Origin: a virus
DNA length: 64,000 bases
IMG/VR virus record: IMGVR_UViG_3300008954_000005
Location: 91,723-155,722 of that record
Reading direction: 5' to 3' (one strand)
A model generated the notes under the pieces. That model did no database searches. It saw only the letters and a program-made list of their open reading frames with translations, and was not told where the DNA came from. This document shows, in pieces, positions 30,879 through 63,999 of the stretch. Every line of letters begins with the position of its first letter. The first letter of the stretch is position 1. The position numbers and the translations under genes were made by a program.

Positions 30879-33800
30879 TTAGATAATAAGCCATCGTTCC
30901 CCATCACAAACCAACGTCAAAGACGACCAAGGGTCAGGCAATAACGCTGCATCAGGAATATCACCGCTGGTCTGTACAGATCCAATATCATCAATGTACT
31001 CTCCGGTCCCATCATCTCCTACGGACGCTCTCACCACAACCATCGGATAGACCCCATCCTTATTGGAAAATCCTTGGGAATCCTTGATCACGATCTTTCG
31101 GCCGGTGTTCGTAACCGTATCAAAGCTGTCTGCTACTGGCGGAAGAACAAGCACAAGTCTCGCCCCCGAAGCTGGGAAATTCCCCCACTCATCTGTGAAG
31201 GGATCAAAGTCTCCTCCACGTACAGCGTCGTCATTAATGACAGAAACTAGGTCTGCCTTAACAATGTTCTCTGACGCCCCAATATCACGAATGAAATCGA
31301 CCCCAAGTAGATTCCCGTCATTGTCAAAACGGTCTACCTTCTGGTTGTTCGCGGAATCAAAGAAATGCATCGTAAGTGACACCGAGGAGGAGCCACTAGT
31401 GATTACCCCGGTAAGCGTACCATTGGGGTCGGACAAGAATTTGATCTTAGGATCAGCAATTTTTGGGGCTTGAAGCGACCCATCCGACGCTAAGTACGGA
31501 ACCTCGTAATCAACTGCGTCGTCTGGATTATCCACCGTCGAGCCTGACGCGGTGAGCAGGTCGTCACCAAGCATCAAAGCCCCGTCAGGGTCTCGAAGCC
31601 AGACGACCGTATTCAGTAGGTCTGTCCAGTCTGCCGGATCTCCCCCGTTGGCAATAATAGCGGCCTTACCTGGATTATCTGCAGTCTTCGTAAGTTGTAG
31701 GCCCGTTGGGTCTACGATCCCGGTGACTTTGAGGTCACCCTCCACCACCATTTGCGGCATAGTCGCAGCTAGACAGAGGTGAGCGGACTTGTCGAACGAC
31801 ATGGCCCCTACCATCAGGACACCGCGCTTATCCGGGTCTATAGATACCGTTCCTGGGGCTGGGCCAATTAGCTCGGGAGGTCCACCGCCTCCTGGGGCTA
31901 AGTCAACTGGCCACGGGATAGAAACCATCGCCCCAGCGGGGAGGTCCCACTCTTGGGCGTCGGGACCAGTCTGTACCACCTCCGTGTCAGGATTCCCGTC
32001 AGGAGGGTCGCTAGTATCGACCATATGCCGGGGCCAATCAGGCTCACCAGGGATGATAGTGACATGACTGGGGTCTGCTGCTGTCCCTACACCAGCTACA
32101 CCAGATTGGATGGTTACATTACCGCCGACAACCCCTGAGTTTACTCGTGCAATAGAGTCCGCACCTCTAATTAAGATGTCCCCTACGGGGCCATGCCCAG
32201 CAAGAGGATCATGGCCTAACCCGCCGTCATAGTCAGGAGCGCCTGATGCAGCATCCCAGCCCTCATTAGAGTGAAGCGTCTGGATGATGATTGAGCCCGA
32301 GCCGCCTGTATGATCACCAGCACCTCCTGTGATGAATACGCTTCCACCCCTCCCGTGGAACTGATGATTTCCCGCGTTCTTGTATAAGATATGCGACTCG
32401 TCAACAAACGCCCCCAGCGTGTGTTCACGGACAGTGCCGCCAGCCATTCCTCCGCCTGTTCCAACGCCTGCGCTACCACCAGAAATGGTAACGTCACCAC
32501 CACTAGGCCCTTGAACGGTCCAAGTCGGATCTCCAGGGTCGCCGTTGGGAGCTTGGTAAGTACTGCCGCCCGCAAGCGTGATGTCTCCACCACGAACAGC
32601 GATGTCTGTAATTCCCGCCTCTAAAGATGCCTTAGTCCCAGTCGTATCGAGGCCCGCTATACCGCCTGTGATGTCGACGGAGCCGCCGAATCCGTGCCCA
32701 TGCATAGAGCCAGTGAAGTCGTATGAATTTCCCCCACCAATGTAGACAGCGCCACCATCGTTACCGTCTCCACCATGCATATCGGCGTTTCCGCCTCGGC
32801 CACGCCTCTCCCAATCGTTGGGGCTTGGGGTGGTTCCGGAGTGGTTCTGCCCACCAATTGCGTGGACGTACCCACCGGCGTGAGTAAAATCAGCAGCCGT
32901 TTTGCCCACAGCACCACCGACTAAATCAACAAACCCCCCGTTACTGCCATCAACTTCAGACTCGCCCCCAAAAACGTACACATTTCCGGAATGCGCATGA
33001 GATGACGACCCCGGCTGAATTCGAATAGACCCCGCTGTGGTACCAGAAGCCGCAGGGGAAGAGCCTGTTGTAATTAACAACGGAAAGCTTGTTGTAACAG
33101 GAACGCCCTCTATAGTTCGTGTAGTCGCGTCAACAACAGTTGAGAGTGAGGACATATCCGCAAATTCAACCGTAAACGGGCCAGACTCTGCGTCCACGAG
33201 AACCTTAGAATTTTCTAAGGTATCCCCATTAATATCTGCCCACTTAGCGATTGCATGAGCGTACGTGCTGTTAGCAAGAGGCCCTGGAATTGTCAGTCCT
33301 GCGCCCGTCGAGAGGCTTACAATCTTCTCGTCTACCCCATCGTGCCCATGCGCGTACTTGTAATACAACTCGTTGGCCACCAAGGCGTCACCAAGGTGAT
33401 CCTGCCCAGAACCAGAAGAAACAAAGAGGGCACCTTCATCAGCAGCTATTTCCGTCGTAGGTGCCGCCTCCATCATATCCGCTGCGTCAGTGGTCAAGAT
33501 GAGCGCAATCGGGTCAATGACCCCGTCTACCGTTAATTTCTCAGTAATATGGAGATCTCCGATAAACTTGGAATCCCCGGTTACTTGAAAAACCTCATCA
33601 TCCGCATCCAGCGGGGCAGCGCCACCAACACCAACCTTCCCTGTGGTATTGGCCAGCAACACGTCTCCATCCAGGGAGCCTGGGCTTAGCTTCGCACCGC
33701 CGTCTATGAAGACAGTCCCGCCTGGATTCCCTGTTCCTGCGGCGATAGTTACATCGCCTCCCTTTGTCCCAGCACCATCGGCGTCGGCAGAGTTTCCTGC

Positions 33801-35477
33801 TGTAACGGTTAAGTTGCCCGCGTCAGCGCGAGTAGCACCACCAGCCGTAAGATGTATATCTCCGCCAGGAATATCGTCTGACAAGCCTGCGTTGATGTTT
33901 ATATCACCGGCTTGCATACAAGCTTGCGTACCTATGTTTACAGAACCAGAAGCCGTCGCGGGGCTTGTGGGGTCTACTGGCGCACCAGCGGATAGGTGAA
34001 GATCCCCACCAGCGCTTCCCCCAACACCACTAGTGATGTACACCTCCGCAGGGGAGCCTGTGGAGGACTCTCCGGGGAGGATGTGGATCCCACCAGCCTG
34101 TCTACCCTCCGATGGTTGAGTAGTGATTCGTAGGTCGGTGTCCGTGGCTTCGCCAGCGTCTCTGTGATCGACGGTGACAAGCTCAACAGAACCAATATCG
34201 TCGTAGTCGTCAGTTGTTGTGGTGTTTGTTGTCGTTTGGTAGTGCAGAACCTGTACAGCACTATTTTGGATCAATTCCCCAGTGGTGCCATCCCACCGAA
34301 CAAGGGCCTTATCCGTGCTCTCTAATGGGCCAGTAACCACCCCAGGCAACCATGAAGTGTGTCCATGGAAGTAAACGGCTCCAGGGGTCTCAACATCGTC
34401 CGAGGTCTGGCCCCGTAGTACGTGTCCGACATAACGGTCGTAATAGCCAAGGCCCATCGTACTGGGCTGCGTAGCCCCTAGAACAGCCGTAGGCTGAATA
34501 AACAGCCTAGTGTTATTACCTGTAATGGCGTCGATGGTAGGGATACCACTGGTGTCCATTGGGAGGGTTCCCTCTACCAACATGTACACCCGATCCCCAA
34601 TCGAAGTCGTCGTCCCTAAACTAATGAAGATTGGGAGTTCCGCCAACGACGGGCTCTCTAAGTCAGCCGCGACAATGGGCCGAACCTGTACAGCATAGTT
34701 GTAGTAATAAACCTCTTCACCACCATCAACTAAGTCTGTCCCAACCAATGAGTCATGCCATTGCTTATATTCCTCCTCGTTAGTCACCGTAAGCAGGGTC
34801 CCAAAGGACACCGTACTCGTTGTGACCGCCCCGGAAGCAATCTTACGGAAACTCATCCCCTTTGAGAGCGTAGAAAAATAACGCTCCGCGCTGCGAGACC
34901 AACCCTCGTCAGCGTCGTACTCAACCTCTTCGGTTGGGGCAACATACGAGGTTCCAATTGAACCGCTGCTCGTCTCTAGGTGCCCACCATCGATGTTCCC
35001 AATTACATGGGGGTCTTCGATTTCAAGAAGCGCAGTAAACGCCGTTACCTCTTCAGAGGCCACGTTGTACCCAGCGCCTGTATCGGTTTCCTGCTCAATC
35101 AGATGGCCGTGTACTCGAATAAGCCAACGACCGGGGGTGACGGCCTGAAACTGTTTAGGGTTCCACTCAACGCCATCGATATCTGTCGGACCCGCGTCGG
35201 ACAAAACTCTGGCAGGCCCATCTGGGCCGAAGAGCTTCCATGAGTCTGCGTCAAGGACGTATTTACCTAGAGCCGACTCCCCACCTACGTCCTCGTAAAC
35301 CTCAATCGAGCCGATGTCGCCACCCGCATCTATTGTTGTAGAGGACCCTGTCCACTCCGCTTGGTTTCCTTCGTCGTCTTCGAAGGTGACGAGGCATTGG
35401 CTCGAAACGGTCGCGTTAACGTCGTAAAGTACGCGATCTTTCGAGCCCAGGGGGTGTTGGATATAAAGCTTAGCCAT
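30879..35477 (-). CDS. Tail fibre protein with Gly-rich repeats (1532 aa)
   Basis: Many GG(D/N/S)hxhxxG repeats; C-terminal LPP...GRKIVIKD...LTLVCDGERWLII typical of fibre domains. Confidence 0.72.
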   Translation of the reverse strand: MAKLYIQHPLGSKDRVLYDVNATVSSQCLVTFEDDEGNQAEWTGSSTTIDAGGDIGSIEVYEDVGGESALGKYVLDADSWKLFGPDGPARVLSDAGPTDIDGVEWNPKQFQAVTPGRWLIRVHGHLIEQETDTGAGYNVASEEVTAFTALLEIEDPHVIGNIDGGHLETSSGSIGTSYVAPTEEVEYDADEGWSRSAERYFSTLSKGMSFRKIASGAVTTSTVSFGTLLTVTNEEEYKQWHDSLVGTDLVDGGEEVYYYNYAVQVRPIVAADLESPSLAELPIFISLGTTTSIGDRVYMLVEGTLPMDTSGIPTIDAITGNNTRLFIQPTAVLGATQPSTMGLGYYDRYVGHVLRGQTSDDVETPGAVYFHGHTSWLPGVVTGPLESTDKALVRWDGTTGELIQNSAVQVLHYQTTTNTTTTDDYDDIGSVELVTVDHRDAGEATDTDLRITTQPSEGRQAGGIHILPGESSTGSPAEVYITSGVGGSAGGDLHLSAGAPVDPTSPATASGSVNIGTQACMQAGDININAGLSDDIPGGDIHLTAGGATRADAGNLTVTAGNSADADGAGTKGGDVTIAAGTGNPGGTVFIDGGAKLSPGSLDGDVLLANTTGKVGVGGAAPLDADDEVFQVTGDSKFIGDLHITEKLTVDGVIDPIALILTTDAADMMEAAPTTEIAADEGALFVSSGSGQDHLGDALVANELYYKYAHGHDGVDEKIVSLSTGAGLTIPGPLANSTYAHAIAKWADINGDTLENSKVLVDAESGPFTVEFADMSSLSTVVDATTRTIEGVPVTTSFPLLITTGSSPAASGTTAGSIRIQPGSSSHAHSGNVYVFGGESEVDGSNGGFVDLVGGAVGKTAADFTHAGGYVHAIGGQNHSGTTPSPNDWERRGRGGNADMHGGDGNDGGAVYIGGGNSYDFTGSMHGHGFGGSVDITGGIAGLDTTGTKASLEAGITDIAVRGGDITLAGGSTYQAPNGDPGDPTWTVQGPSGGDVTISGGSAGVGTGGGMAGGTVREHTLGAFVDESHILYKNAGNHQFHGRGGSVFITGGAGDHTGGSGSIIIQTLHSNEGWDAASGAPDYDGGLGHDPLAGHGPVGDILIRGADSIARVNSGVVGGNVTIQSGVAGVGTAADPSHVTIIPGEPDWPRHMVDTSDPPDGNPDTEVVQTGPDAQEWDLPAGAMVSIPWPVDLAPGGGGPPELIGPAPGTVSIDPDKRGVLMVGAMSFDKSAHLCLAATMPQMVVEGDLKVTGIVDPTGLQLTKTADNPGKAAIIANGGDPADWTDLLNTVVWLRDPDGALMLGDDLLTASGSTVDNPDDAVDYEVPYLASDGSLQAPKIADPKIKFLSDPNGTLTGVITSGSSSVSLTMHFFDSANNQKVDRFDNDGNLLGVDFIRDIGASENIVKADLVSVINDDAVRGGDFDPFTDEWGNFPASGARLVLVLPPVADSFDTVTNTGRKIVIKDSQGFSNKDGVYPMVVVRASVGDDGTGEYIDDIGSVQTSGDIPDAALLPDPWSSLTLVCDGERWLII

Positions 35478-54734: not shown

Positions 54735-55677
54735 CAAGGGCTCCCCGAATCGTAGGCTCAGGGGAGATGGTGATTCCACTTCCTGTTCCTGGCTCGACTC
54801 GGGCAACTTCAACCTCTGCTGTTCCTGCGGACAGACCCTCTACTATAAGAGTAGAGTCTGTCAACGACATGCTAATAACTTCATCATCAGAGTTACTAAG
54901 CAGGACATCTAGAACGCCGTCAAGTTTTAGATTACTTCTATACGTAGTTTTTAGCGTAAGCTCGGCTGTCTGGCCGACACTCAAAGCGATAGTGGGGGTA
55001 TTATAGGTTAATACAGCCCCAACAATTTCACCTGGAGCGTCCACCACCGTATACTCTATTCCGTCCACTACGGGAAATATGACATCTGGTAAATGGGCCG
55101 ACGCGGCATCAGGGACTTGAATCTCTCTCAAGATATTCTCGTACCCCTCCATGTAAACGCTATAAAATTTTTCCCTCAATAAGTCTACAGAAGCAAACCC
55201 GTCCGAGTCTGTTTTCACAATCCGAACACGAGGAATGAGCAGGTGAGACCTACTATTACCCGCATAGTATATTAAATTAGGTAGTGCTGTTTCAGCTTCC
55301 GAAAAGCGTATCGTTAATTCCTGAACAGGAACCCCATACGGGTCGATAAAATAACCTGAACATCTACATAAGTGCTCATCTGTAGCCACGGCCAGCGCGG
55401 TATCATTTATAACAACATCAAATACATGGGGATCTGTATCGACCACCTCAACGGTCTGAAGATTCCCGTCAGATATCGTGGCTCCAGAGGGCGGTGTAAG
55501 ATGAATCTCATACTCATCTACCGCCTGATCTCCTAAAAATACTATGCCGTCTGCATCAGTTAATCCGCCTGTAATGGCGGCAAAGGTGCTAGGTAGGTGG
55601 AGAGATACGTACACATTGGCAAGCGGGTCTCCACCGCCACCAATCTCTGACCTGCAATGTACGTATACGTCTGCCAT
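54715..55677 (-). CDS. Acidic beta-sandwich (Ig/transthyretin-like) virion protein
   Basis: TDADGIV and TDSDGFASVDL motifs; C-terminal Ig-like VEGLSAGTAEVEV. Confidence 0.6.
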   Translation of the reverse strand: MADVYVHCRSEIGGGGDPLANVYVSLHLPSTFAAITGGLTDADGIVFLGDQAVDEYEIHLTPPSGATISDGNLQTVEVVDTDPHVFDVVINDTALAVATDEHLCRCSGYFIDPYGVPVQELTIRFSEAETALPNLIYYAGNSRSHLLIPRVRIVKTDSDGFASVDLLREKFYSVYMEGYENILREIQVPDAASAHLPDVIFPVVDGIEYTVVDAPGEIVGAVLTYNTPTIALSVGQTAELTLKTTYRSNLKLDGVLDVLLSNSDDEVISMSLTDSTLIVEGLSAGTAEVEVARVEPGTGSGITISPEPTIRGALGVTVSN

Positions 55678-55679
55678 CC

Positions 55680-56540
55680 CTATCTCCCCGAAGTAGTCCG
55701 GATTGATCTCATCGCGCCTGTCCCGTACTGATTAGGTCGGTAAGCTCCTCCGCGCTGTTGCGCTTGTGGGATTCCTGGAGCCCGACCACCCAGGGCCTGC
55801 CGCATGACGCCTTGACCCCTCGCTGTGTCTCGGGCTTGTCCCGGAGCCATCGCTAAGTCCAGCCCAGCAAGGCCTATCGCACCGCCTCGTAGTGCCTTGC
55901 GACCTCTGCTCAGGGTGTTCCAGGCCTGCGCTCCTTGACCACCAGCGCCTCTGCCCCACGTCCGTGCACCTGGGGAAGCGATGCGGCCAGTCATAGTAGT
56001 TCCTCTAGACCCAAGCATCCCGATTTGACGGTTAATTGGGTTCACCGGAGCCCGCGCAAATGTGTGTGTACCAGCTTTAGCAGCACGGCCCATTCCACGG
56101 ACACTTGACGACAACGCTCTAACGCCCGTTAGACCCTGTTTTGCGCGACGGGCTGCTTGAACACCCCTTGCTACTCTGTATCCACGATAACCGAGCATTG
56201 CGGCGCGGCCAAGACCAGCGGCCACATTCAAGCCGGGAACAAACATCGCACCGGTGAGAGCAATGTCAGCCCAGTTATTTTTAACGAAATTACCAGCACT
56301 TCTCATCCAACCCGGCGCTCTCCACGCCATCTTCACAAACTCTGGGTCGACGTCGTGTAGCTCTTGGATAAAGGCAACCTTGGTAGTCCAATCCAAAGCC
56401 TTCTCCTGTACGGAAGCAGACTTGGTCATGGCCTTCTTGTTAAAAGCCCTCGCCAATCTAAGGCGCAACTCAGTAGGAATACCATCATTTAGGGCAACGC
56501 CCCAGGTCTCCTCTTGTGCTGTTTTAATCATGTCGCTCAT
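55680..56540 (-). CDS. Basic Gly/Ala/Arg-rich protein with K-x-A motifs (putative internal head protein)
   Basis: MIKTA, MTKSA, TTKVA, FVKMA then Arg/Gly-rich body with hydrophobic IALTGAMFVPGLNVAAGL; ATG 56540 with GGAG (track start 56552). Confidence 0.6.
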   Translation of the reverse strand: MSDMIKTAQEETWGVALNDGIPTELRLRLARAFNKKAMTKSASVQEKALDWTTKVAFIQELHDVDPEFVKMAWRAPGWMRSAGNFVKNNWADIALTGAMFVPGLNVAAGLGRAAMLGYRGYRVARGVQAARRAKQGLTGVRALSSSVRGMGRAAKAGTHTFARAPVNPINRQIGMLGSRGTTMTGRIASPGARTWGRGAGGQGAQAWNTLSRGRKALRGGAIGLAGLDLAMAPGQARDTARGQGVMRQALGGRAPGIPQAQQRGGAYRPNQYGTGAMRSIRTTSGR

Positions 56541-56568
56541 TACTTTCTCCAATAAACCTTAGACATAG

Positions 56569-58392
56569 TTAGCGTGTTAGACGAGTTTGTCTGCCCGCGC
56601 CTATCTGATTTAGATTATCTGCTCGCTGGCGCTGGAGTGCCTCCCAGTTCGCCTGTGCAGCGGTGTTCCCGACGCCCTGTCTCTCTAGCCGATCCGCGTT
56701 ACGGCGGCGGTGTTGGGTACCTTGGTGCCCCCTGAGGGCACGCATCGCACTGGTTCCATATCGCTGTCTGTTGTGTATCTGTTGGCGTTCATAGAGCGGC
56801 CTAGCGTCAGCGAGCCCTTTCCCCCAGGCTGCGTTTCGCGCACGATCACCAAGAAGTCCTTGATCCGCCGCGATATTCAAGCCCGTACCACCTATCGAGG
56901 CCGGGGAAAGAAGCTTACCGCCATGGAAAGTGGTCCCGAGCAGCGCACCGCCCAAGGCCATGTTCATCCGCATTGGATCATTCCAATCAGCCTCTCGATT
57001 AGCCGCATAAGAAGCTCCATACCCGAAAAGGCCTCCACGGGTGCCACCTCTTCCCATGCCCTTAAGCATACGAGGGACAATACCGCCAGTCTCATCCCAA
57101 CGCTTAACCAACTCCACACCACGCTTAGTGTTACCCGGCCTAAGAATGGATCTTCCGAAGGGAACTAGGTTCGCCAGCCCGCCCGTACGAGAGCCTAGGA
57201 ACTCTACGCCGTCCTTGGTTTTATAGACGTTCCTCATTCCGGTCCCGGCACCAAACAGACGGTGTCTAGCGCCCTTTAGGGTCTCTTTCATTCGGTGGCC
57301 TGCTCGACCAAGGCGACCTGCAGTGGCTGCGGGGTTGGTTTTTGCTACTGTAGTTGCGCCTGTCGATGTTCGAACAAGCCCTGGAACTTTAGCTCCTCTA
57401 GTGGTGACGGTACGCGCTGCTGTCGCTGCTGTGGTTATTGGGTTACCGGCAGCATCAAGAAGCCTAGAAGTCCTGGCGGGAACGGCGGGAATATTACGGA
57501 CTACGTCCGGAAGTCTGCCGGTACGTCGTATGTGCGCTAGAGTATTTGCAGAGTGACCTGCCCCACTAAGAGCTTCCGCAGCCTCTCGACCGCGTGGAAG
57601 GTACGAAGCGTCGTGCGCTGACCTTGCCTGCCTTGCCCTCCGAGCCGCACGCGTTGCACGCGTACCGTGCGTTCGTGCTGCACCGCCAGAACTGATAGCC
57701 CGTCTGAGACCGCCACCGCGACGTAGAGCCTTCCACGCAGCCCCTCCGAATCGGATAAGGCCACCAATTGCCACCTTCTCCATGTCGCTATTACCTGCTA
57801 ATGCGGAAGCGGCCTGCTGGTTCATTACTACTAAACTAACAGAAGCCGCCTTCATCTGACCGCCTTGGTCGATTAGCTGCGCGGGGTCTTTCTGTTGTAG
57901 CGCGGCAGACCGGCTTAAAAGCTCACCCTTCGCCGCTGTCGGGTTCTGTCGCTTAACAGACGCCTTGATACTTCCCTGGTTTCGTTTCATGGGGGAGGTA
58001 CTCTTAGCTGCAGCGGTCAATCCAGGCCACGCTGTTCTCAGATTTCGTCCCGCAATCTCTACGGACTGTTGTGCTACCTGTGGCTGTGCCATGAACTGGT
58101 ACGGAGCCATGCCGGTACCCATAGCAGTTATTCCCTGACCAGGACGCCCCCCTGTCTGTGTGGCGATGCCCTCTTTGATGATGTCAGCTTTCTTCCTCTT
58201 CTCTTCCTTCTGCCGTGTCATTTCGGCACTAGTGCCCCGGTTACCAGCATGCTTAACGGTCTTCTCCGCCTTAGAGCGGGAAAGCATTTTAACAAGACGC
58301 TGGATTACGGCCTCTTTGGTGATATCGGCGGTCTTCTTGTGTTCCTTCACCTGCTCTGTCCGAAGGCGTAGCTCTTCTAGTTTACCGATCAT
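56569..58392 (-). CDS. Basic Gly/Ala/Arg-rich protein with K-x-A motifs (putative internal head protein, 607 aa)
   Basis: KKTA, TKEA, VKHA, MKAA, MEKVA then a very Arg/Gly-rich region. Confidence 0.6.
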   Translation of the reverse strand: MIGKLEELRLRTEQVKEHKKTADITKEAVIQRLVKMLSRSKAEKTVKHAGNRGTSAEMTRQKEEKRKKADIIKEGIATQTGGRPGQGITAMGTGMAPYQFMAQPQVAQQSVEIAGRNLRTAWPGLTAAAKSTSPMKRNQGSIKASVKRQNPTAAKGELLSRSAALQQKDPAQLIDQGGQMKAASVSLVVMNQQAASALAGNSDMEKVAIGGLIRFGGAAWKALRRGGGLRRAISSGGAARTHGTRATRAARRARQARSAHDASYLPRGREAAEALSGAGHSANTLAHIRRTGRLPDVVRNIPAVPARTSRLLDAAGNPITTAATAARTVTTRGAKVPGLVRTSTGATTVAKTNPAATAGRLGRAGHRMKETLKGARHRLFGAGTGMRNVYKTKDGVEFLGSRTGGLANLVPFGRSILRPGNTKRGVELVKRWDETGGIVPRMLKGMGRGGTRGGLFGYGASYAANREADWNDPMRMNMALGGALLGTTFHGGKLLSPASIGGTGLNIAADQGLLGDRARNAAWGKGLADARPLYERQQIHNRQRYGTSAMRALRGHQGTQHRRRNADRLERQGVGNTAAQANWEALQRQRADNLNQIGAGRQTRLTR

Positions 58393-59636
58393 GTTAACGA
58401 TCTCCTCGGGGCCGCAGGAACTTCCGGTGCGATAATATCAAATACATCATCTGCCCCCGACAACAAGGTCAGGAGGTTCACATCAGCCACAGCATCATCT
58501 CCTGTGGGGACGTCGATAATACGCCGTAGAGACAGTGGGGCAATAGACACTTCAATTTTTATGCCCTGTACCAAATCAAACTCAACGTGACCGTTAGAAT
58601 CTGTCTTATAGGTTTTATTAGTATCAAATACACCGGCACCGCTAAAAATTTGGGGAGTGTGTATTAGTCGTACATGGATGTTTGCCTTTATCAGGGGCTT
58701 TCCATCCATCATATACAAGTCGGCAAACAGCGTACACATATCTGCCGGTTTCGCTGGGGCCGTGTACGTGGGGGTTACAGAGGCAGTGACTAACTGAAAT
58801 ACCTGTGCCTCTGACTTAGACGCGGAGTAGAAGATAGGCTCGTTAGAGATTTCTCTAGTATTTACGATGTCTACGGCAAAGTTATTATTTGTAAATACGA
58901 CGCCATCTTTAAGGAGGGAGATGATGTAGGAACCTGGGTCGAGGTTTACTACCGCCTCACCATCAACGTCTGTGGTTGTGGCTTCTACATGAACGCCACC
59001 AGAAGTAGCTACAACCACAGTAGTCGCTGTGTGGGGTTGTCCGTTGTTACCCTCTTCGGTAGCAACGGTAAGCGTTACCGTTTCTGCCCCGGATGGGGTG
59101 AGAATCAGTAAAGGAACTACTTGGAACGGTAGCTGGTTTCCACCACCGTCGTCCTTGGTCCAAACGAGGAAGTACTGGCCAGCAACGCTGAAGGTGGCGG
59201 TGGTCGAGTAATCCGACCTGTCAGCATCATACGCAGCCTCTTCAGCGGCTAAAAACTCAGCAGAATCACTATCAATGATAAGTAGTTCTACAGTCTCACT
59301 GTCACCACCCGCTACACGCTGGTCTACAGCAACCGTAACTTCCTCAGCCCTCGGGTAATCAGAAACAGGGTCTTTCCCAACATCGATGGTTTTGGTCAGA
59401 ACGATGGTGTCAGCATCATCACCATAGGTGTACGTTGCGACGTACTGGCCCGCTAAGGAAAACAGAACGGCTTCACTTATGTACAAATCAGGAACGTCAC
59501 CAACCGCTGCAAGGTCCACCGTTGATACGGCATCCCCATTCGGGTCGACGACTGCTACAACAAACGCTTCTGCCCCAATGACACTAGATGAGTCAAAGAA
59601 CGGAAGAACCGCCTGATTTCCTAATTTAACCTTCAT
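58389..59636 (-). CDS. Acidic multi-beta-sandwich virion protein, probable paralogue of 54715-55677
   Basis: Internal repeat F.LAGQY / FSVAGQY; TDVDGEAVVNL and TDSNGHVEFDL. Confidence 0.6.
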   Translation of the reverse strand: MKVKLGNQAVLPFFDSSSVIGAEAFVVAVVDPNGDAVSTVDLAAVGDVPDLYISEAVLFSLAGQYVATYTYGDDADTIVLTKTIDVGKDPVSDYPRAEEVTVAVDQRVAGGDSETVELLIIDSDSAEFLAAEEAAYDADRSDYSTTATFSVAGQYFLVWTKDDGGGNQLPFQVVPLLILTPSGAETVTLTVATEEGNNGQPHTATTVVVATSGGVHVEATTTDVDGEAVVNLDPGSYIISLLKDGVVFTNNNFAVDIVNTREISNEPIFYSASKSEAQVFQLVTASVTPTYTAPAKPADMCTLFADLYMMDGKPLIKANIHVRLIHTPQIFSGAGVFDTNKTYKTDSNGHVEFDLVQGIKIEVSIAPLSLRRIIDVPTGDDAVADVNLLTLLSGADDVFDIIAPEVPAAPRRSLT

Positions 59637-59884
59637 TCTGCCAACTCACCCGTCGTTGTTTCTGGCTTCTCGATGCCTAATAACGTGGCAACGTCCACGT
59701 AAACATCTACTTCTGTTATCTGTTTATACTTCCTATCAGCCTCTTTAATATTCTCTGCTACCTTCTTCAAAAACTCCCGCTCAATTTGAAGTCGCATCTT
59801 CTCAGCAGTTAAGAATCGAATGACCTGTACACGAAGATCCTCTAGGAATTCCGCTTTAGTCTCTGATCGAATCTTAATGCCCAT
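59633..59884 (-). CDS. Hypothetical coiled-coil protein (83 aa)
   Basis: ATGA overlap with the downstream gene; GGAG upstream. Confidence 0.65.
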   Translation of the reverse strand: MGIKIRSETKAEFLEDLRVQVIRFLTAEKMRLQIEREFLKKVAENIKEADRKYKQITEVDVYVDVATLLGIEKPETTTGELAE

Positions 59885-59887
59885 AGA

Positions 59888-61360
59888 TCAATCTCCAGCC
59901 ATTACGAGACCACCAGCAGCAGCACCGCCAGCAAGCGGTCGCCAGTTCTTCTTCGCAGAAGCGAGAGTCTTGGCAAGCTCAGGATTACGCTCAAGCATCG
60001 CAGCCCACTTCTTAGCTGCTTCTGGGAAGTTCCTTGCTGCCGCATCGCTTGTTGCTTTGGCACCGCTCTCAATACCCTCTGCTACCGCTCTACCACCGCT
60101 CTTCACGCCACCCCAGGCCTTACTGATGTGCGGGGTAGCTTTAGCTCCCCAGCCAGCAAATCGCTTACCTAGATTAGCGAGAAATACCGGGCTGGCTGCG
60201 GTCTTGTCCATGTAGTGGGTGTAGAGCGTTCCAGACGCCAAGCTTAGGCCGTTGGTAAACAAGACCTCGTGTCCAGGAACCATGTGTACTACTGCGGAAG
60301 CCTTCTTCTTTTTGCCCTTTCCACGCTCTTGGATGATTTTGTTTAGCAGTGTTTTCTTGTCTCCGTGAAGAGAGCGGGCCTTACCTCTAGCGCTTGATTG
60401 CAGCCCTATCCCAGCAATCATACTAGCAAGACCACCTGCTTCCAACGCTAACTGTGCCTTAGGGTTCTTCGGAACGAAGGAACCCAGCAAAGCCCCTAAA
60501 CCAGCTATGCTTGTGCCGGTGCCAAGACCGCCTCTCCTTTTCATCTGCTTACGCTTTTTATGGATGTCTTTGATCACCTGCTCCTTTGAGCGAGGATCGT
60601 CCGTCCGACCCTGCATCTGGGCTGGAATCAAAGCATCTCTCTCTTCCTGGGTTAACTTAACCCTCTTGGCGATCTTTACGGAGCCCTTTTTCTCTTGTTC
60701 CCGCTGGCGTTGTGCGAGAGCGGAGGATGCAATCGAACCCGCTGCCATCGCGTACTGCCTAGCAGCACGAGATTTTTCTGTGGCCTTAAGACGCTCTGTA
60801 TTCATTTTGTGCGCCTCAATACGATCAGCACGCGCTCTGCTCTGTTTGGCTCCATGAGCCTTACGCAGCTTTAGGTCGCTTCGGAGAAGCTGGCGTAGGA
60901 TCTTCCCTTTGGCTTTCTCGTTCGCCATGTGGGGGGCAATCCCTAACGTCGGGATACCAGTAAGGATTGGGTGGCGCATTGAGAAGCTTTTAGCCCGAGC
61001 TTTCCCAATCAGGTTCCGAACCTTAGCCTCATCCTTATCACCAAAGTACGCACCAATCTCATCCTCGATGTCCGAGACGTTAAGCTTGGCCGTCTTCTTC
61101 ATCTTCTTCTTGAGAATAGCGGCTTGAATGCTGTCAGGGAGCTTGGACTGCTTGCCTTTAAGGGCGGGGCTCTTGTCCATCGCAGGAGAGAAGGTCGCCT
61201 TACTCGCCTGCTTCTCTTCCCCGCCACCCATCTTGGCAGCTAGAGCAGCAACCTGCTCATCAGACCAATCAGGGTATGCGGCCTTAATAGCCTCTTTAGC
61301 TCCCATGCCTTTCGCCATGAGCGCCTTTACTTTCGCTACGTTAGCTAGCTTGCTTGTCAT
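59888..61360 (-). CDS. Lys-rich modular protein with K-x-A motifs (putative internal head protein, 490 aa)
   Basis: SKLA, EKQA, KKTA, VKIA, KKKA, MDKTA delimit modules; several modules contain Gly-rich hydrophobic helices. Confidence 0.6.
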   Translation of the reverse strand: MTSKLANVAKVKALMAKGMGAKEAIKAAYPDWSDEQVAALAAKMGGGEEKQASKATFSPAMDKSPALKGKQSKLPDSIQAAILKKKMKKTAKLNVSDIEDEIGAYFGDKDEAKVRNLIGKARAKSFSMRHPILTGIPTLGIAPHMANEKAKGKILRQLLRSDLKLRKAHGAKQSRARADRIEAHKMNTERLKATEKSRAARQYAMAAGSIASSALAQRQREQEKKGSVKIAKRVKLTQEERDALIPAQMQGRTDDPRSKEQVIKDIHKKRKQMKRRGGLGTGTSIAGLGALLGSFVPKNPKAQLALEAGGLASMIAGIGLQSSARGKARSLHGDKKTLLNKIIQERGKGKKKKASAVVHMVPGHEVLFTNGLSLASGTLYTHYMDKTAASPVFLANLGKRFAGWGAKATPHISKAWGGVKSGGRAVAEGIESGAKATSDAAARNFPEAAKKWAAMLERNPELAKTLASAKKNWRPLAGGAAAGGLVMAGD

Positions 61361-62256
61361 TGTAGGTACCTCTCCAATTTTTTCTTAATGGCATTTTTGA
61401 GGCGACTGACTTGATAATCAGGCATACCTAACGCCTTTGCGATTTCATTAGTGGACGTAAGTTGGGGTCGCCCAAACCCTGTAAGGTGTTCGTACACCGC
61501 ACGCTCATTACCCGTTAATTCGTACTTCGCCAAACGAAGAACTTCCTCTGACTTGGACGGGGTTAAAGCATACGGATCTTCCTCAAATCCTTGCGTAGTA
61601 AGATCATTTCGTAATTCGGCATCCATCCGCTTGGCCTCTGCAAGAGGCCACCCGAGATTTTTAGCCATCTCTGATACTGAGGGGATCTTACCAAGATCCT
61701 CGGTAAGTTCATCTCTACGCGTCGTATAAAGTTTTAGCTTGTAAACGCGGTTCTCTGGGATGCGCCCGATGTTTTGGTTTTCGACAATGAATCGTTTCGA
61801 CTTGTCTAGATACCGGTACACATAGGTCCCAAGTGAACCTTTAGTCGGATCATACGACCGAAGGGCGTCTACAAAGCGAAGTTGAAACTCAGCCTCTATA
61901 GCTGAGTCGGGAATCATCTTTACCTTCCCTTTGTAGACGTTCGACTTGGACCTAATCATGGGTCGGAAGCTCTTAAGAAGCGGTTCAAGATCCTTTGGAT
62001 CCATTCCGCCATCTTTCCACGCCTGCCACATCTCCAACTCTTTTGCCTTTTTAGTATCGAGTTGGAGTTCCGGATGCTCGTGGCCACTAACAGCTTCGGC
62101 GGCTGTTGGTGCCCCCTCGTCATCTGTCGCCCGATCATGCTCTGCGACGGTAACGACCTTCCCACCAGTACGCCGGGTATGCGCACTTACACGGGTCCTG
62201 CGTTCAGCGAACTTCAGGAAATCCATTACAGGGTCGGTACTCAAGGCAAGCTCCAT
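61357..62256 (-). CDS. Phage sigma70-family (FliA/SigB-like) RNA polymerase sigma factor with N-terminal extension
   Basis: Region 2 ALRSYDPTKGSLGTYVY; region 3 GKIPSVSEMAKNLGW; region 4 LTGNERAV...TNEIAKALGMPDYQVSRLKNAIKKKL. Confidence 0.9.
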   Translation of the reverse strand: MELALSTDPVMDFLKFAERRTRVSAHTRRTGGKVVTVAEHDRATDDEGAPTAAEAVSGHEHPELQLDTKKAKELEMWQAWKDGGMDPKDLEPLLKSFRPMIRSKSNVYKGKVKMIPDSAIEAEFQLRFVDALRSYDPTKGSLGTYVYRYLDKSKRFIVENQNIGRIPENRVYKLKLYTTRRDELTEDLGKIPSVSEMAKNLGWPLAEAKRMDAELRNDLTTQGFEEDPYALTPSKSEEVLRLAKYELTGNERAVYEHLTGFGRPQLTSTNEIAKALGMPDYQVSRLKNAIKKKLERYLQ

Positions 62257-62271
62257 AATTATACGCGCTTC

Positions 62272-63114
62272 TTAGTCACTAAGTTTCTTCGCACCGAGAC
62301 CAAGGGCAGCTAATCCAGTCGTACCGACAGCAGTCTGTAGCCGAGCTTTACGCGTCTTAGCCACCTCAGCAGCGAGCGCCTCTTCTCTGGGCGTTACGCT
62401 CCTCTTGTCGTAGCTCGCAAGCCGCTTTTCAGCCTTCGCCAACTCAGCTTTATTCTTTCTGGCTTTGGGTACAGGGCGTTTTGACTTAGCGGTCTCTAGT
62501 GCCTCTCTGGCACCCTTCTGGTTGCTGCCGACAACGCGCTTAGCAAACTGCTCAGCACCTTCTCGCCAAGCAGCCAAACGACCGCTAGCCGCCTTAGCGA
62601 GCGCATTATCTTCTTGGCTGGATTTGCCGCCCTTAGCGGCCAAACCGATGGCACCCAAGCCAGTAACACCTACGCCAGCGCCAGCAACGCGTCTGTACTT
62701 CTTAGTTCGGGCTTTCTCGACGTCAATCTTGTCGCCCTTGGACTTGATCTTACCAATAAGATCCTTAGTTCGCTGCTTGCTCGCCGCCTCGTCAGCTTCT
62801 CGGGCCTTGCTCTTGCCGAAGACCTTTTCCTTCAAAGAGGTCTTCTTGGAATCAGCAACCCGCTTGGTCTCATGAGCCTTAAACTTCTTCTGCGACTTTG
62901 AGAGGTTCTTTTGGGCAGAGCCGACGTTCTTTCCCTTAATAACAGCGACGGTCTTTTTGCCCTCTTTTAGGGCTGCTCTGAAGGTTCCCTTTAGGGCCTC
63001 CACGACAGCATTCGCCGCCTCTTTCTCCAGAGGGCCTCCGTTAATGTCAATAATCCTTGCCCCAAGCGAGGTACTAAGACCCCGTTTAACGGCTGTTTTC
63101 TCTAACTGACGCAT
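62272..63114 (-). CDS. Lys/Ala-rich protein with K-x-A motifs and two tandem units (putative internal head protein)
   Basis: LEKTA, LEKEA, LAKAA; two units each ending in VG.TGL.A.GL.AK; GGAGG RBS. Confidence 0.65.
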   Translation of the reverse strand: MRQLEKTAVKRGLSTSLGARIIDINGGPLEKEAANAVVEALKGTFRAALKEGKKTVAVIKGKNVGSAQKNLSKSQKKFKAHETKRVADSKKTSLKEKVFGKSKAREADEAASKQRTKDLIGKIKSKGDKIDVEKARTKKYRRVAGAGVGVTGLGAIGLAAKGGKSSQEDNALAKAASGRLAAWREGAEQFAKRVVGSNQKGAREALETAKSKRPVPKARKNKAELAKAEKRLASYDKRSVTPREEALAAEVAKTRKARLQTAVGTTGLAALGLGAKKLSD

Positions 63115-63390: not shown

Positions 63391-63999
63391 CTATGCTAGC
63401 TCGGTGTCGCCACCGGTGTCGGCCCAGCCGTCGGGTGGTTGGGGGGTAGCTACACTAGCGGTTTGAACACCACTACCAGCAATACCGGTGCGGTTACCCA
63501 TAAGGTTTCGCATTTCGGCAACATAGGCTGATACCGCCGTGTGCCGCGCAAGCCTAGTATCTGTCTCTGCTCTAACCTCTCGCTGTTCTGTGCCGGGGGC
63601 AACCGTGGTCAACCTCTCGTCAGCCCCGGTCATCGGCACTTCGTTACCGTTAGTGTCTTCTTTCATCAGGCTAGTAAAAGGACCAAACGCCCATGAATGG
63701 AACCCCTCAACAGGACCACCAGCACCAGCCGCTACATCGGTTTCACTAATATTCCCATACCAACGACCCGGACTAGCCATTGTCATATCGGTAGCGGATT
63801 GCCACGTCATACCTTTATTTACTGTCCCAAGGATATCGTAAATATCAGCCATAGACCGTTGCGTGTACGTATCGATAAACCGATTTACGTCAGCGCCAAT
63901 CTCCTTCAACCCCATCCACACCTCTGCCAACGCATCCGCAGCAGCCTGTGTCGTGTTCCCTGGCTGCATCAAGTCTGATGGTACGAGGACGTCTTGAAC
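63391..63999 (-). CDS. C-terminal part of a hypothetical protein, probably truncated by the window edge
   Basis: Frame stays open from the track start (63972) to 63999. Confidence 0.6.
   Translation of the reverse strand, partial: VQDVLVPSDLMQPGNTTQAAADALAEVWMGLKEIGADVNRFIDTYTQRSMADIYDILGTVNKGMTWQSATDMTMASPGRWYGNISETDVAAGAGGPVEGFHSWAFGPFTSLMKEDTNGNEVPMTGADERLTTVAPGTEQREVRAETDTRLARHTAVSAYVAEMRNLMGNRTGIAGSGVQTASVATPQPPDGWADTGGDTELA

Follow-up and report, generated by a model that had tools for sequence, protein, structure and literature searches.

A Lys/Ala pentapeptide as a candidate protease-cut loading leader on cationic proteins of an uncultured Arash-like marine myophage

The internal proteins IPI-IPIII of phage T4 are small and basic and carry an N-terminal capsid targeting sequence that ends in the motif of the prohead protease gp21; they are packaged with the DNA and injected, and gp21 also shreds the scaffold, trims the capsid protein and processes itself. 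In adenovirus, cationic DNA-condensing and membrane-lytic proteins (pVII, pre-mu and pVI) are activated in the capsid at a short consensus, (M/I/L)-x-G-G↓x (the arrow marks the cut), by adenain, a cysteine protease of another fold; the cut exposes an amphipathic helix at the new N-terminus. Herpesvirus assemblin cuts V/L-x-A↓S sites, in which a hydrophobic residue comes before a small P1 Ala and P1′ is Ser. In phiKZ and SPN3US (proteases gp175 and gp245), numerous proteins inside the head mature by cuts at a short motif, in most cases with the loss of an N-terminal propeptide; SPN3US cuts after A-X-E, and several candidate sites can lie within a propeptide (PMC10052503). Only a few phages (T4, phiKZ/SPN3US and HK97) have a prohead protease of known specificity. 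Here we describe a pentapeptide, Phi-x-K-x-A (Phi, hydrophobic residue or Thr; x, any residue), in four basic proteins of an uncultured Arash-like marine myophage. The DNA analyzed ("the window", 64,000 nucleotides) is the last 64 kb, positions 91,723 to 155,722, of a single, truncated 155,722-bp phage contig (IMG/VR record IMGVR_UViG_3300008954_000005); coordinates marked "genome" count on the whole contig. With moderate confidence, we propose that the pentapeptide is a protease-cut loading leader for head-internal or ejected cargo.

A first-pass annotation of the window had described four otherwise dissimilar proteins punctuated by K-x-A and had proposed that they are capsid-packaged cargo matured by a protease whose specificity differs from the Glu-ending motifs of T4 and phiKZ. 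All four genes were verified on the minus strand:

55680-56552, minus strand: p290, open reading frame; net charge +29, Gly/Ala-rich
56569-58392, minus strand: p607, open reading frame; net charge +64
59888-61360, minus strand: p490, open reading frame; net charge +52
62272-63114, minus strand: p280, open reading frame; net charge +39

The likely true start of p290 is the ATG at 56540, which gives a protein of 286 residues. The four proteins contain 15-17% Ala and 10-15% Gly (26-30% Gly plus Ala). They belong to a set of ten strongly basic Gly/Ala-rich proteins in the genome that are indeed dissimilar: all-against-all BLAST finds no significant paralogy among the ten (best E 0.02). The "family" is a shared style and a shared leader, and common descent lies below detection. 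Searches of Pfam and PHROGs with all ten returned nothing usable, and no matches for p290, p607, p490 or p280; megablast and tblastn searches of 50,697 phage records with the region and with p607 gave zero matches, so that these searches found no homology to known internal or ejection proteins. The structural models are of low confidence (p607: ESM Atlas, predicted local distance difference test [pLDDT] 0.42, no informative structural neighbour; p290: AlphaFold2 from 5 sequences, pLDDT 37, no fixed fold predicted), so the four proteins are probably disordered, or helical without a fixed fold.

Every K-x-A instance listed in the first-pass annotation exists. As a bare tripeptide, the motif occurs 25 times in the four proteins and 25.5 times are expected from shuffles; the claim for K-x-A by itself therefore falls, its frequency being no higher than composition predicts. 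The patterns A.K, K..A and KA (a dot is any residue) are likewise at expectation. The longer form that had also been pointed out, [LM][ED]K.A, is enriched (4 seen, 0.2 expected), and 13 of the 18 listed sites fit an extended motif that requires a hydrophobic residue or Thr two positions ahead of Lys. Genome-wide, this extended motif ([LMFT].K.A) is found 67 times in virion-module proteins, where 27-29 are expected (2.4-fold; z 7-8), and 17 times in non-structural proteins, where 19 are expected. Control patterns with R in place of K, with G or S in place of A, or with the spacing moved by one are flat, and [LMF].E.A and similar patterns show no enrichment. Because the codons at the motif sites are diverse and of normal usage, the signal is at the level of protein and is not a hidden DNA word.

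We then compared relatives. A search with the protease gene described below found 35 IMG/VR loci, including contigs of 134-187 kb, and comparison genomes were assembled from fetched stretches: G001-G004, with 63-70% protease identity, and G006, with 35%. Among cultured phages, Vibrio phages D69, D148 and D181 and Salmonella phage Arash are the nearest relatives. When 135 K.A sites from the motif-rich head proteins of three genomes are combined in a logo, the consensus is L-E-K-x-A, followed by S/A/G or a hydrophobic residue: two positions before Lys the order is L > F > M > I, directly before Lys it is E > V > T, between Lys and Ala there is T/L/V/E/Q, and Ala is followed by S/A/E/G. The fixed residues are thus Lys and Ala, and the sites read neither as L/I-x-E nor as A-x-E; in this respect, the first-pass annotation was right that the specificity is unlike that of T4 and phiKZ. 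As a check that uses no protein classes, we scanned all ~72,000 three-residue gapped patterns, the whole-proteome scans being independent of any structural/non-structural split. L.K.A ranks 2nd in G006 (54 vs 21.4 expected, p = 2e-9; about 2e-4 after Bonferroni correction) and 3rd in Arash (50 vs 22.3), EK.A ranks 3rd in G003, and EK.A is the best non-repeat pattern in the virion class of the present genome.

These results also dispose of most of the case for chance. Given the abundance of Lys and Ala, K-x-A should turn up without any meaning, and the bare tripeptide and its permutations do sit at expectation, as given above. However, the extended motif is enriched only in virion-module proteins with the controls flat, unbiased scans recover it in three diverged genomes and it is invariant at key alignment columns; chance is rejected for the extended motif and holds for the bare tripeptide only, and as an explanation of the whole pattern we give it almost no weight. 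The core of the earlier idea, that is, a prohead-protease motif other than Glu-ending that marks capsid cargo, came through every comparative test that we ran, with K-x-A alone as the part that did not. A literature search found no description of this motif or protease specificity, which is not proof of absence.

The proposal presupposes a prohead protease; one was sought in the genome and found:

Genome 61087-62772, minus strand: candidate assemblin-fold prohead serine protease (head maturation protease phrog_18299, E 1.5e-12)

A Pfam search with this 561-residue protein gave no match; its tblastn matches include annotated prohead/capsid maturation proteases of Rhodococcus phage E3 and Gordonia phage Stormageddon. 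Across 14 sequences, with identities as low as 38%, His103, His104 and Ser160 (in V-S-M-G) do not vary, nor do D108, D168, D212 and D221. The gene lies in a minus-strand head module with the order terminase, basic genes, protease, two acidic scaffold-like genes, a 193-aa (amino acid) gene and the gene for the major capsid protein (MCP; phrog_2522). Among 48,161 chains, the best match of the AlphaFold2 model (pLDDT 61) is T4 gp21 (5jbl_A; Z 6.6, below 8; root-mean-square deviation 3.4 over 126 aligned residues); the varicella-zoster virus protease has Z 5.4, and the Foldseek list is headed by herpesvirus proteases with a weak E of 0.04. Sequence searches of solved structures with the protease and with the MCP returned nothing. 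For this candidate, the evidence from sequence and context is good and that from the modeled fold is moderate.

The motif brackets the catalytic domain of the protease (about residues 32-226), with K29/A31 before it and K229/A231 and K259/A261 right after it, and these positions are nearly invariant across the same 14 sequences. The arrangement is repeated in Arash gp222 and in gp19 of Bacillus phage G (16840-17742), a protease homologue (36% identity over 168 residues) that is unannotated in its record and carries 7 motif sites (0.8 expected). Since so distant a homologue carries seven copies, the specificity may be much older than the Arash-like lineage. The portal and gp20 of phage G have N-terminal motif copies.

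The capsid protein and scaffold-like proteins carry the motif, a point that the first-pass annotation had suggested checking. The scaffold-like proteins between the protease and the MCP are dense in it: in one acidic scaffold-like protein (genome 60333-60986), four of the 5 sites read (T/L)EK(T/I)A, and Arash gp220, gp223 and gp225 have 9, 8 and 6 sites, respectively. The MCP has a site near its N-terminus (KEKIA at residues 23-27 in the marine clade; LVKEA at residues 25-29 in Arash).

Such a motif might be bound rather than cut, that is, it could be a docking or assembly element (a helix that binds scaffold, portal or protease) or a structural repeat of helical virion proteins. The tests that we ran speak to the enrichment and placement of the motif and not to cleavage; in the common leaders, tandem sites spaced by 7-12 residues resemble a binding helix; and the reported coverage of many motif-rich Arash proteins is 95-100% (PMC10585845). 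We nevertheless regard an uncut motif as unlikely: the two nearly invariant sites right after the catalytic domain, kept as far as phage G, fit autoprocessing, a site ~25 residues into the MCP fits cutting, as does the very high density in acidic scaffold-like proteins, which must exit the head, and the strictness of Lys and Ala, together with the small residue that follows, resembles subsite specificity. Docking and cutting are, moreover, mutually compatible. If the motif is cut, a cut after Ala (Ala as P1, Lys as P3) is favored over a cut after Lys: P1 is as a rule the invariant position, and a small residue comes next.

The motif is concentrated at N-termini: 27 proteins carry it within their first 50 residues, and 10.8 are expected to. 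The first-pass annotation had placed it near the N-termini of the four proteins, and this is borne out; all four have a site in their first 30 residues, and the placement is kept in positional orthologs. Leader motifs open 9/10 of the strongly basic Gly/Ala-rich proteins of the genome, including all four considered here. In relatives, a near-identical leader, MNALEKYAAKRKL..L.K.A, opens several unrelated small basic proteins, and in the present genome a leader of this type sits on a 102-aa basic protein (genome 45881-46189). The complete marine genomes each encode 17-18 strongly basic leader-bearing proteins, including an SNF2-type helicase; counted once each, these amount to about 5000 residues and a charge of +520 to +650. 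Upstream, in the part that extends past the end of our contig, the complete relatives have a 1404-aa Gly/Ala-rich candidate tape measure without the motif and about ten further small basic leader-bearing genes.

The leader is also found on two proteins with recognizable functions. The first is encoded between p490 and p280:

61357-62256, minus strand: sigma-70-family factor (Pfam Sigma70_r3, 4e-6; phrog_351, 1e-13)

Its leader, FLKFA at residues 13-17 (62206-62220, minus strand), is kept as FLKFA/FLKYA in G001, G003 and G004. The second is the SNF2-type helicase (genome 69070-70857, minus strand; net charge +51), whose leader motif at residues 4-11 is kept in four relatives. The helicase matches phrog_62 (generic DNA helicase, 8e-52) and, more weakly, the DarB-like antirestriction phrog_10089 (6.6e-7); by analogy, it may be an injected enzyme like DarB of phage P1.

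Synteny around the locus is conserved in the relatives. The basic genes themselves evolve fast: only parts of p290, p607 and p490 can be aligned (30-45% identity), and p280 has positional orthologs only, which lie upstream of the sigma factor in G001, G003 and G004, are basic too and start with leader motifs. Within the proteins, the following elements are conserved:

56325-56339, minus strand: FVKMA, the last leader site of p290; orthologs have FEKVA, LTKTA, MEKVA and FEKVA at the same column
57769-57783, minus strand: MEKVA, the central site of p607, followed by the segment IGGLIRFGGAAWKALRR
56893-57300, minus strand: conserved Gly-rich core of p607, residues 365-500 (domain alignment)

In p290, a neutral leader of ~76 residues (residues 1-76) contains five motif sites, and residues 77-290 carry a charge of +30; the leader is followed by a conserved transmembrane-like helix and then a cationic tail. 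K74 and A76 are among only 11 invariant columns of the ortholog alignment, and FVKMA is the predicted cut that would expose a W/F-rich hydrophobic segment. In p607, leader sites at residues 24 and 45 are joined by the central MEKVA. The centre of this family, (L/M/I)-E/R-K-x-A followed by a hydrophobic/Gly-rich helix, is kept in all distant members retrieved, and the same site-plus-helix recurs in an unrelated protein (genome 65319-65978). A profile search of 1.84 billion proteins with the p607 core returned only 22 cluster representatives, all from the same lineage, so the core is lineage-restricted; for p607 relatives, a pattern scan of viral contigs found none, and a word-index search returned p607 itself and one 70% relative. 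In p490, the sites are at residues 2-6, 87-91 and 384-388, and two Gly-zipper-like hydrophobic helices span residues 278-322; MDKTA at residue 384 aligns with IQKHA, MEKQA and LVKTA after a conserved Y-x-x-Y context (G001, G003 and G004). In p280, LEKTA (residues 4-8), LEKEA (29-33) and LAKAA (172-176) are distributed over two modules, each with a Gly/Ala hydrophobic helix at its end.

The first-pass annotation had read these proteins as polyproteins in which the motif stands at composition boundaries and is followed by a basic stretch with a Gly/Ala helix. The modular alternation of helix and motif is present as described, repeated twice in p280 and found in Arash Gp97 (below). The boundary was confirmed only in part, namely at residues 76/77 of p290 and at the central site of p607. 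A helix does follow the central site of p607, but in p280 the helix precedes the motif. The polyprotein idea is likewise supported in part, by the conserved internal sites of p607 and p490 and by the modular repeats of p280 and Arash gp97.

Mass spectrometry of Arash virions provides an independent view of what such a virion contains (PMC10585845, Table 2). Most spectra were from the RNA polymerase beta protein, Gp206 (3516), and beta' (Gp216), sigma (Gp10, homologous to the factor described above), an abundant helicase (Gp217) and the protease homologue (Gp222) were detected as well; Gp97, Gp96, Gp100 and Gp95 gave 1060, 816, 471 and 406 spectra, and the MCP gave 1333 (PMC10585845). In our analysis, Gp95, Gp96, Gp97 and Gp100 are strongly basic (+19, +31, +64 and +23, respectively) and Gly/Ala-rich. 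The motif is present in all of them but Gp96, in which we found no site; Gp97 is modular, with a Gly/Ala hydrophobic helix and then Phi-x-K-x-A in repeated succession. Their genes (gp95c-gp97c and gp100c, Arash 54867-58971) form a block that has tRNA genes and a homing endonuclease as neighbours and is remote from the structural modules; a 74-aa gene annotated "ribosomal protein L2" sits inside this block.

We infer the following sequence of events. The pentapeptide hydrophobic/Thr-x-Lys-x-Ala would be recognized by the assemblin-fold prohead serine protease that the phage itself encodes. Leaders would carry the basic proteins into the procapsid along with the scaffold-like proteins; the protease would then strip the leaders, cut some proteins internally, shred the acidic scaffold-like proteins, trim the capsid protein and process itself. 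The mature cationic products would remain in the head with the DNA and would probably be ejected into the host with the single-chain beta-beta' RNA polymerase, the sigma factor and the SNF2/DarB-like helicase. By analogy with known systems, they could plausibly neutralize charge and condense DNA and/or insert into membranes by means of the exposed hydrophobic Gly-rich helices. For p290, p607, p490 and p280, cleavage, packaging and the function of the products are all parts of this scheme that are inferred from the patterns described above.

Several points weigh against a leader that is cut to load cargo. The structural/non-structural split that underlies the genome-wide enrichment was made after the hits had first been seen. 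In ortholog alignments made with MAFFT, K and A are kept in 48% of comparisons at motif sites and in 39% at control K.A sites, a difference too small to rely on; shifts of sites where the sequences align poorly are the probable cause. The site in the marine-clade MCP has a Lys at the fifth position instead of a hydrophobic residue, and an N-terminal site is missing from the marine-clade RNA polymerase. None of the four proteins has a detectable homologue in Arash, and p490 and p280 compared with gp97 gave none; the mass spectrometry therefore supports the protein class only. The Arash paper mentions neither a protease nor termini, and it lists 116 "virion" proteins, many at near-complete (implausible) coverage, so contamination of the list is possible (PMC10585845). 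Its supplement holds gene tables only and no peptide lists. Finally, the four genes adjoin baseplate/fibre genes and are outside the head module.

This last point raises the question of whether the four proteins are tail or baseplate components (tape-measure-like, in the tail lumen, or baseplate-associated and membrane-penetrating) and not capsid cargo. Their genes lie between a hub-like gene and the baseplate/fibre genes, Gly/Ala-rich hydrophobic helices are common in tape-measure proteins, and Arash gp4, which is Gly/Ala-rich and 1097 aa long, is its likely tape measure. However, complete relatives (e.g., G001) hold the separate, motif-free 1404-aa candidate. The basic proteins are several, their lengths vary among close relatives (448-607 aa for the p607 orthologs) and the gene copy number differs among genomes, which is not how a tape measure behaves. 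Their N-terminal leaders are those of head-internal proteins and were looked for and not found in the sheath-like 1465-aa protein and the 999-aa and 485-aa virion proteins, and similar basic leader-bearing genes adjoin the protease and terminase. A tail location is, in our view, improbable.

The invariant Lys could also be an acceptor for covalent modification, for example by a ubiquitin-like conjugation cassette. The same genome encodes such a cassette (Ubl-E2-JAB-E1, genome 34930-38165), and the SUMO consensus, hydrophobic-K-x-E, is similar in style. The cassette is kept in G001-G004, but it has no BLAST counterpart in G006 and one weak match in Arash, and yet the motif is strong in both; phage G gp19 carries the motif too, and modification would leave its placement in N-terminal leaders and around the protease domain unexplained. 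We consider an acceptor Lys very improbable.

The setting of the locus can be described briefly. On the minus strand, one long run of late genes extends from 64000 down to ~15800, and it includes two genes outside the basic family and an incomplete gene at the contig end:

58389-59884, minus strand: two interleaved genes, for an acidic 415-aa protein and an 83-aa protein; both conserved and syntenic in relatives
63391-63999, minus strand: open reading frame, open at the contig end; C-terminal part of a 1201-aa hub-like protein, aligning to residues 1042-1179 of the G001 protein

The acidic 415-aa protein (58389-59636) has weak prealbumin/CarboxypepD_reg-like matches and zero motif sites in this genome; its orthologs are 343-657 aa long, with an invariable short C-terminal tail, A-P/Q-R/K-R-S/T-L. 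Because the open reading frame at the end matches only the C-terminal part of the 1201-aa protein, the gene cluster is cut off by the end of the assembly; the complete relatives (173-180 kb) continue for ~20 kb more. The N-terminus of the 1201-aa hub-like protein of relatives is weakly like Arash gp8, a cell-wall hydrolase. In the fibre/baseplate block, a 1532-aa Gly-rich protein (30879-35477, minus strand) has 6 motif sites (0.8 expected), and only its N-terminal ~400 residues are conserved in relatives; the motif in this protein is odd, as tail proteins are not expected to encounter a prohead protease. Directly downstream of the MCP gene, a 195-aa protein (genome 56659-57246) has a long (Pro-Glu)n run and then a Lys/Arg tail; it is the top pattern of the unbiased scan, and BLAST found no relative. 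In the non-structural proteins of G000, G003 and G006, C-x-x-C-G is strongly over-represented (19 vs 1.7 in G006), and the pattern suggests many small zinc-ribbon-type proteins.

If the protease-cut leader is correct, a motif that can be read from sequence would make the matured and packaged proteome of a barely studied lineage predictable from genomes alone; phages of this lineage occur widely in the sea, and some are in culture. By the motif, the cargo that is probably injected comprises the sigma factor, a helicase and a large set of cationic, disordered proteins that evolve rapidly; this is relevant to how infection begins when a phage supplies a bacterial-type RNA polymerase of its own. 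The common leader could be a portable capsid-targeting tag, a use to which the T4 targeting sequence has been put. More tentatively, a "leader and cut" code may be lineage-wide, from marine 150-190-kb phages to Arash, with the protease out to Bacillus phage G. Taken jointly, this code would have three parts: L-E-K-x-A↓(S/A/G), read by an assemblin-fold protease with a herpesvirus-like Ala at P1, would load the capsid; the cargo would be a full transcription start kit (RNA polymerase, sigma and helicase) and 15-20 disordered polycationic proteins, some of them polyproteins; and the cut products would condense DNA in a protamine-like core and/or breach the host envelope with helices that resemble fusion peptides. 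That all of this holds together is doubtful, and we offer it as a possibility to be set beside the simpler proposal.

The closest described systems can now be compared with this locus. As in T4, basic proteins carry a short N-terminal leader, and T4 gp21 is the best fold match of the protease. The motif differs (Phi-x-K-x-A instead of L/I-x-E), there is no sequence similarity to the T4 internal proteins (no Pfam/PHROG matches), and the cargo is more numerous and larger (17-18 proteins and about 5000 residues per complete genome), with hydrophobic Gly-rich helices in many members; in addition, packaging and injection, as known for T4, are proposals here. The likeness to phiKZ/SPN3US is a multisubunit-type RNA polymerase in the head together with motif-matured head proteins, as we propose here. 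In our phage, however, Lys and Ala are fixed, the polymerase is a single beta-beta' chain with a sigma factor and not a five-subunit sigma-less enzyme, the genomes are 156-180 kb and inner-body homologues were not found.

With herpesvirus assemblin, the protease shares a fold class (weak matches), and the Ala followed by S/A/G resembles the assemblin sites if, as we favor, Ala is P1; Lys is fixed here, to our knowledge assemblin has no Lys requirement, and the relationship is distant and one of fold only. The likeness to adenovirus, W/F/I-rich, Gly-rich segments right after the sites in p290, p607 and p490, is an analogy with no homology. The likeness to the head-internal antirestriction (Dar) proteins of P1, among them the helicase/methylase DarB, which is packaged for injection, is a helicase with a leader motif and a DarB-like PHROG match, whose Arash homologue, Gp217, is abundant in virions; unlike DarB, the main match of our helicase is a generic DNA helicase (phrog_62), and no methylase domain was seen in it. 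In its mode, the system is like those of T4 and phiKZ/SPN3US, and it is outside their specificity class.

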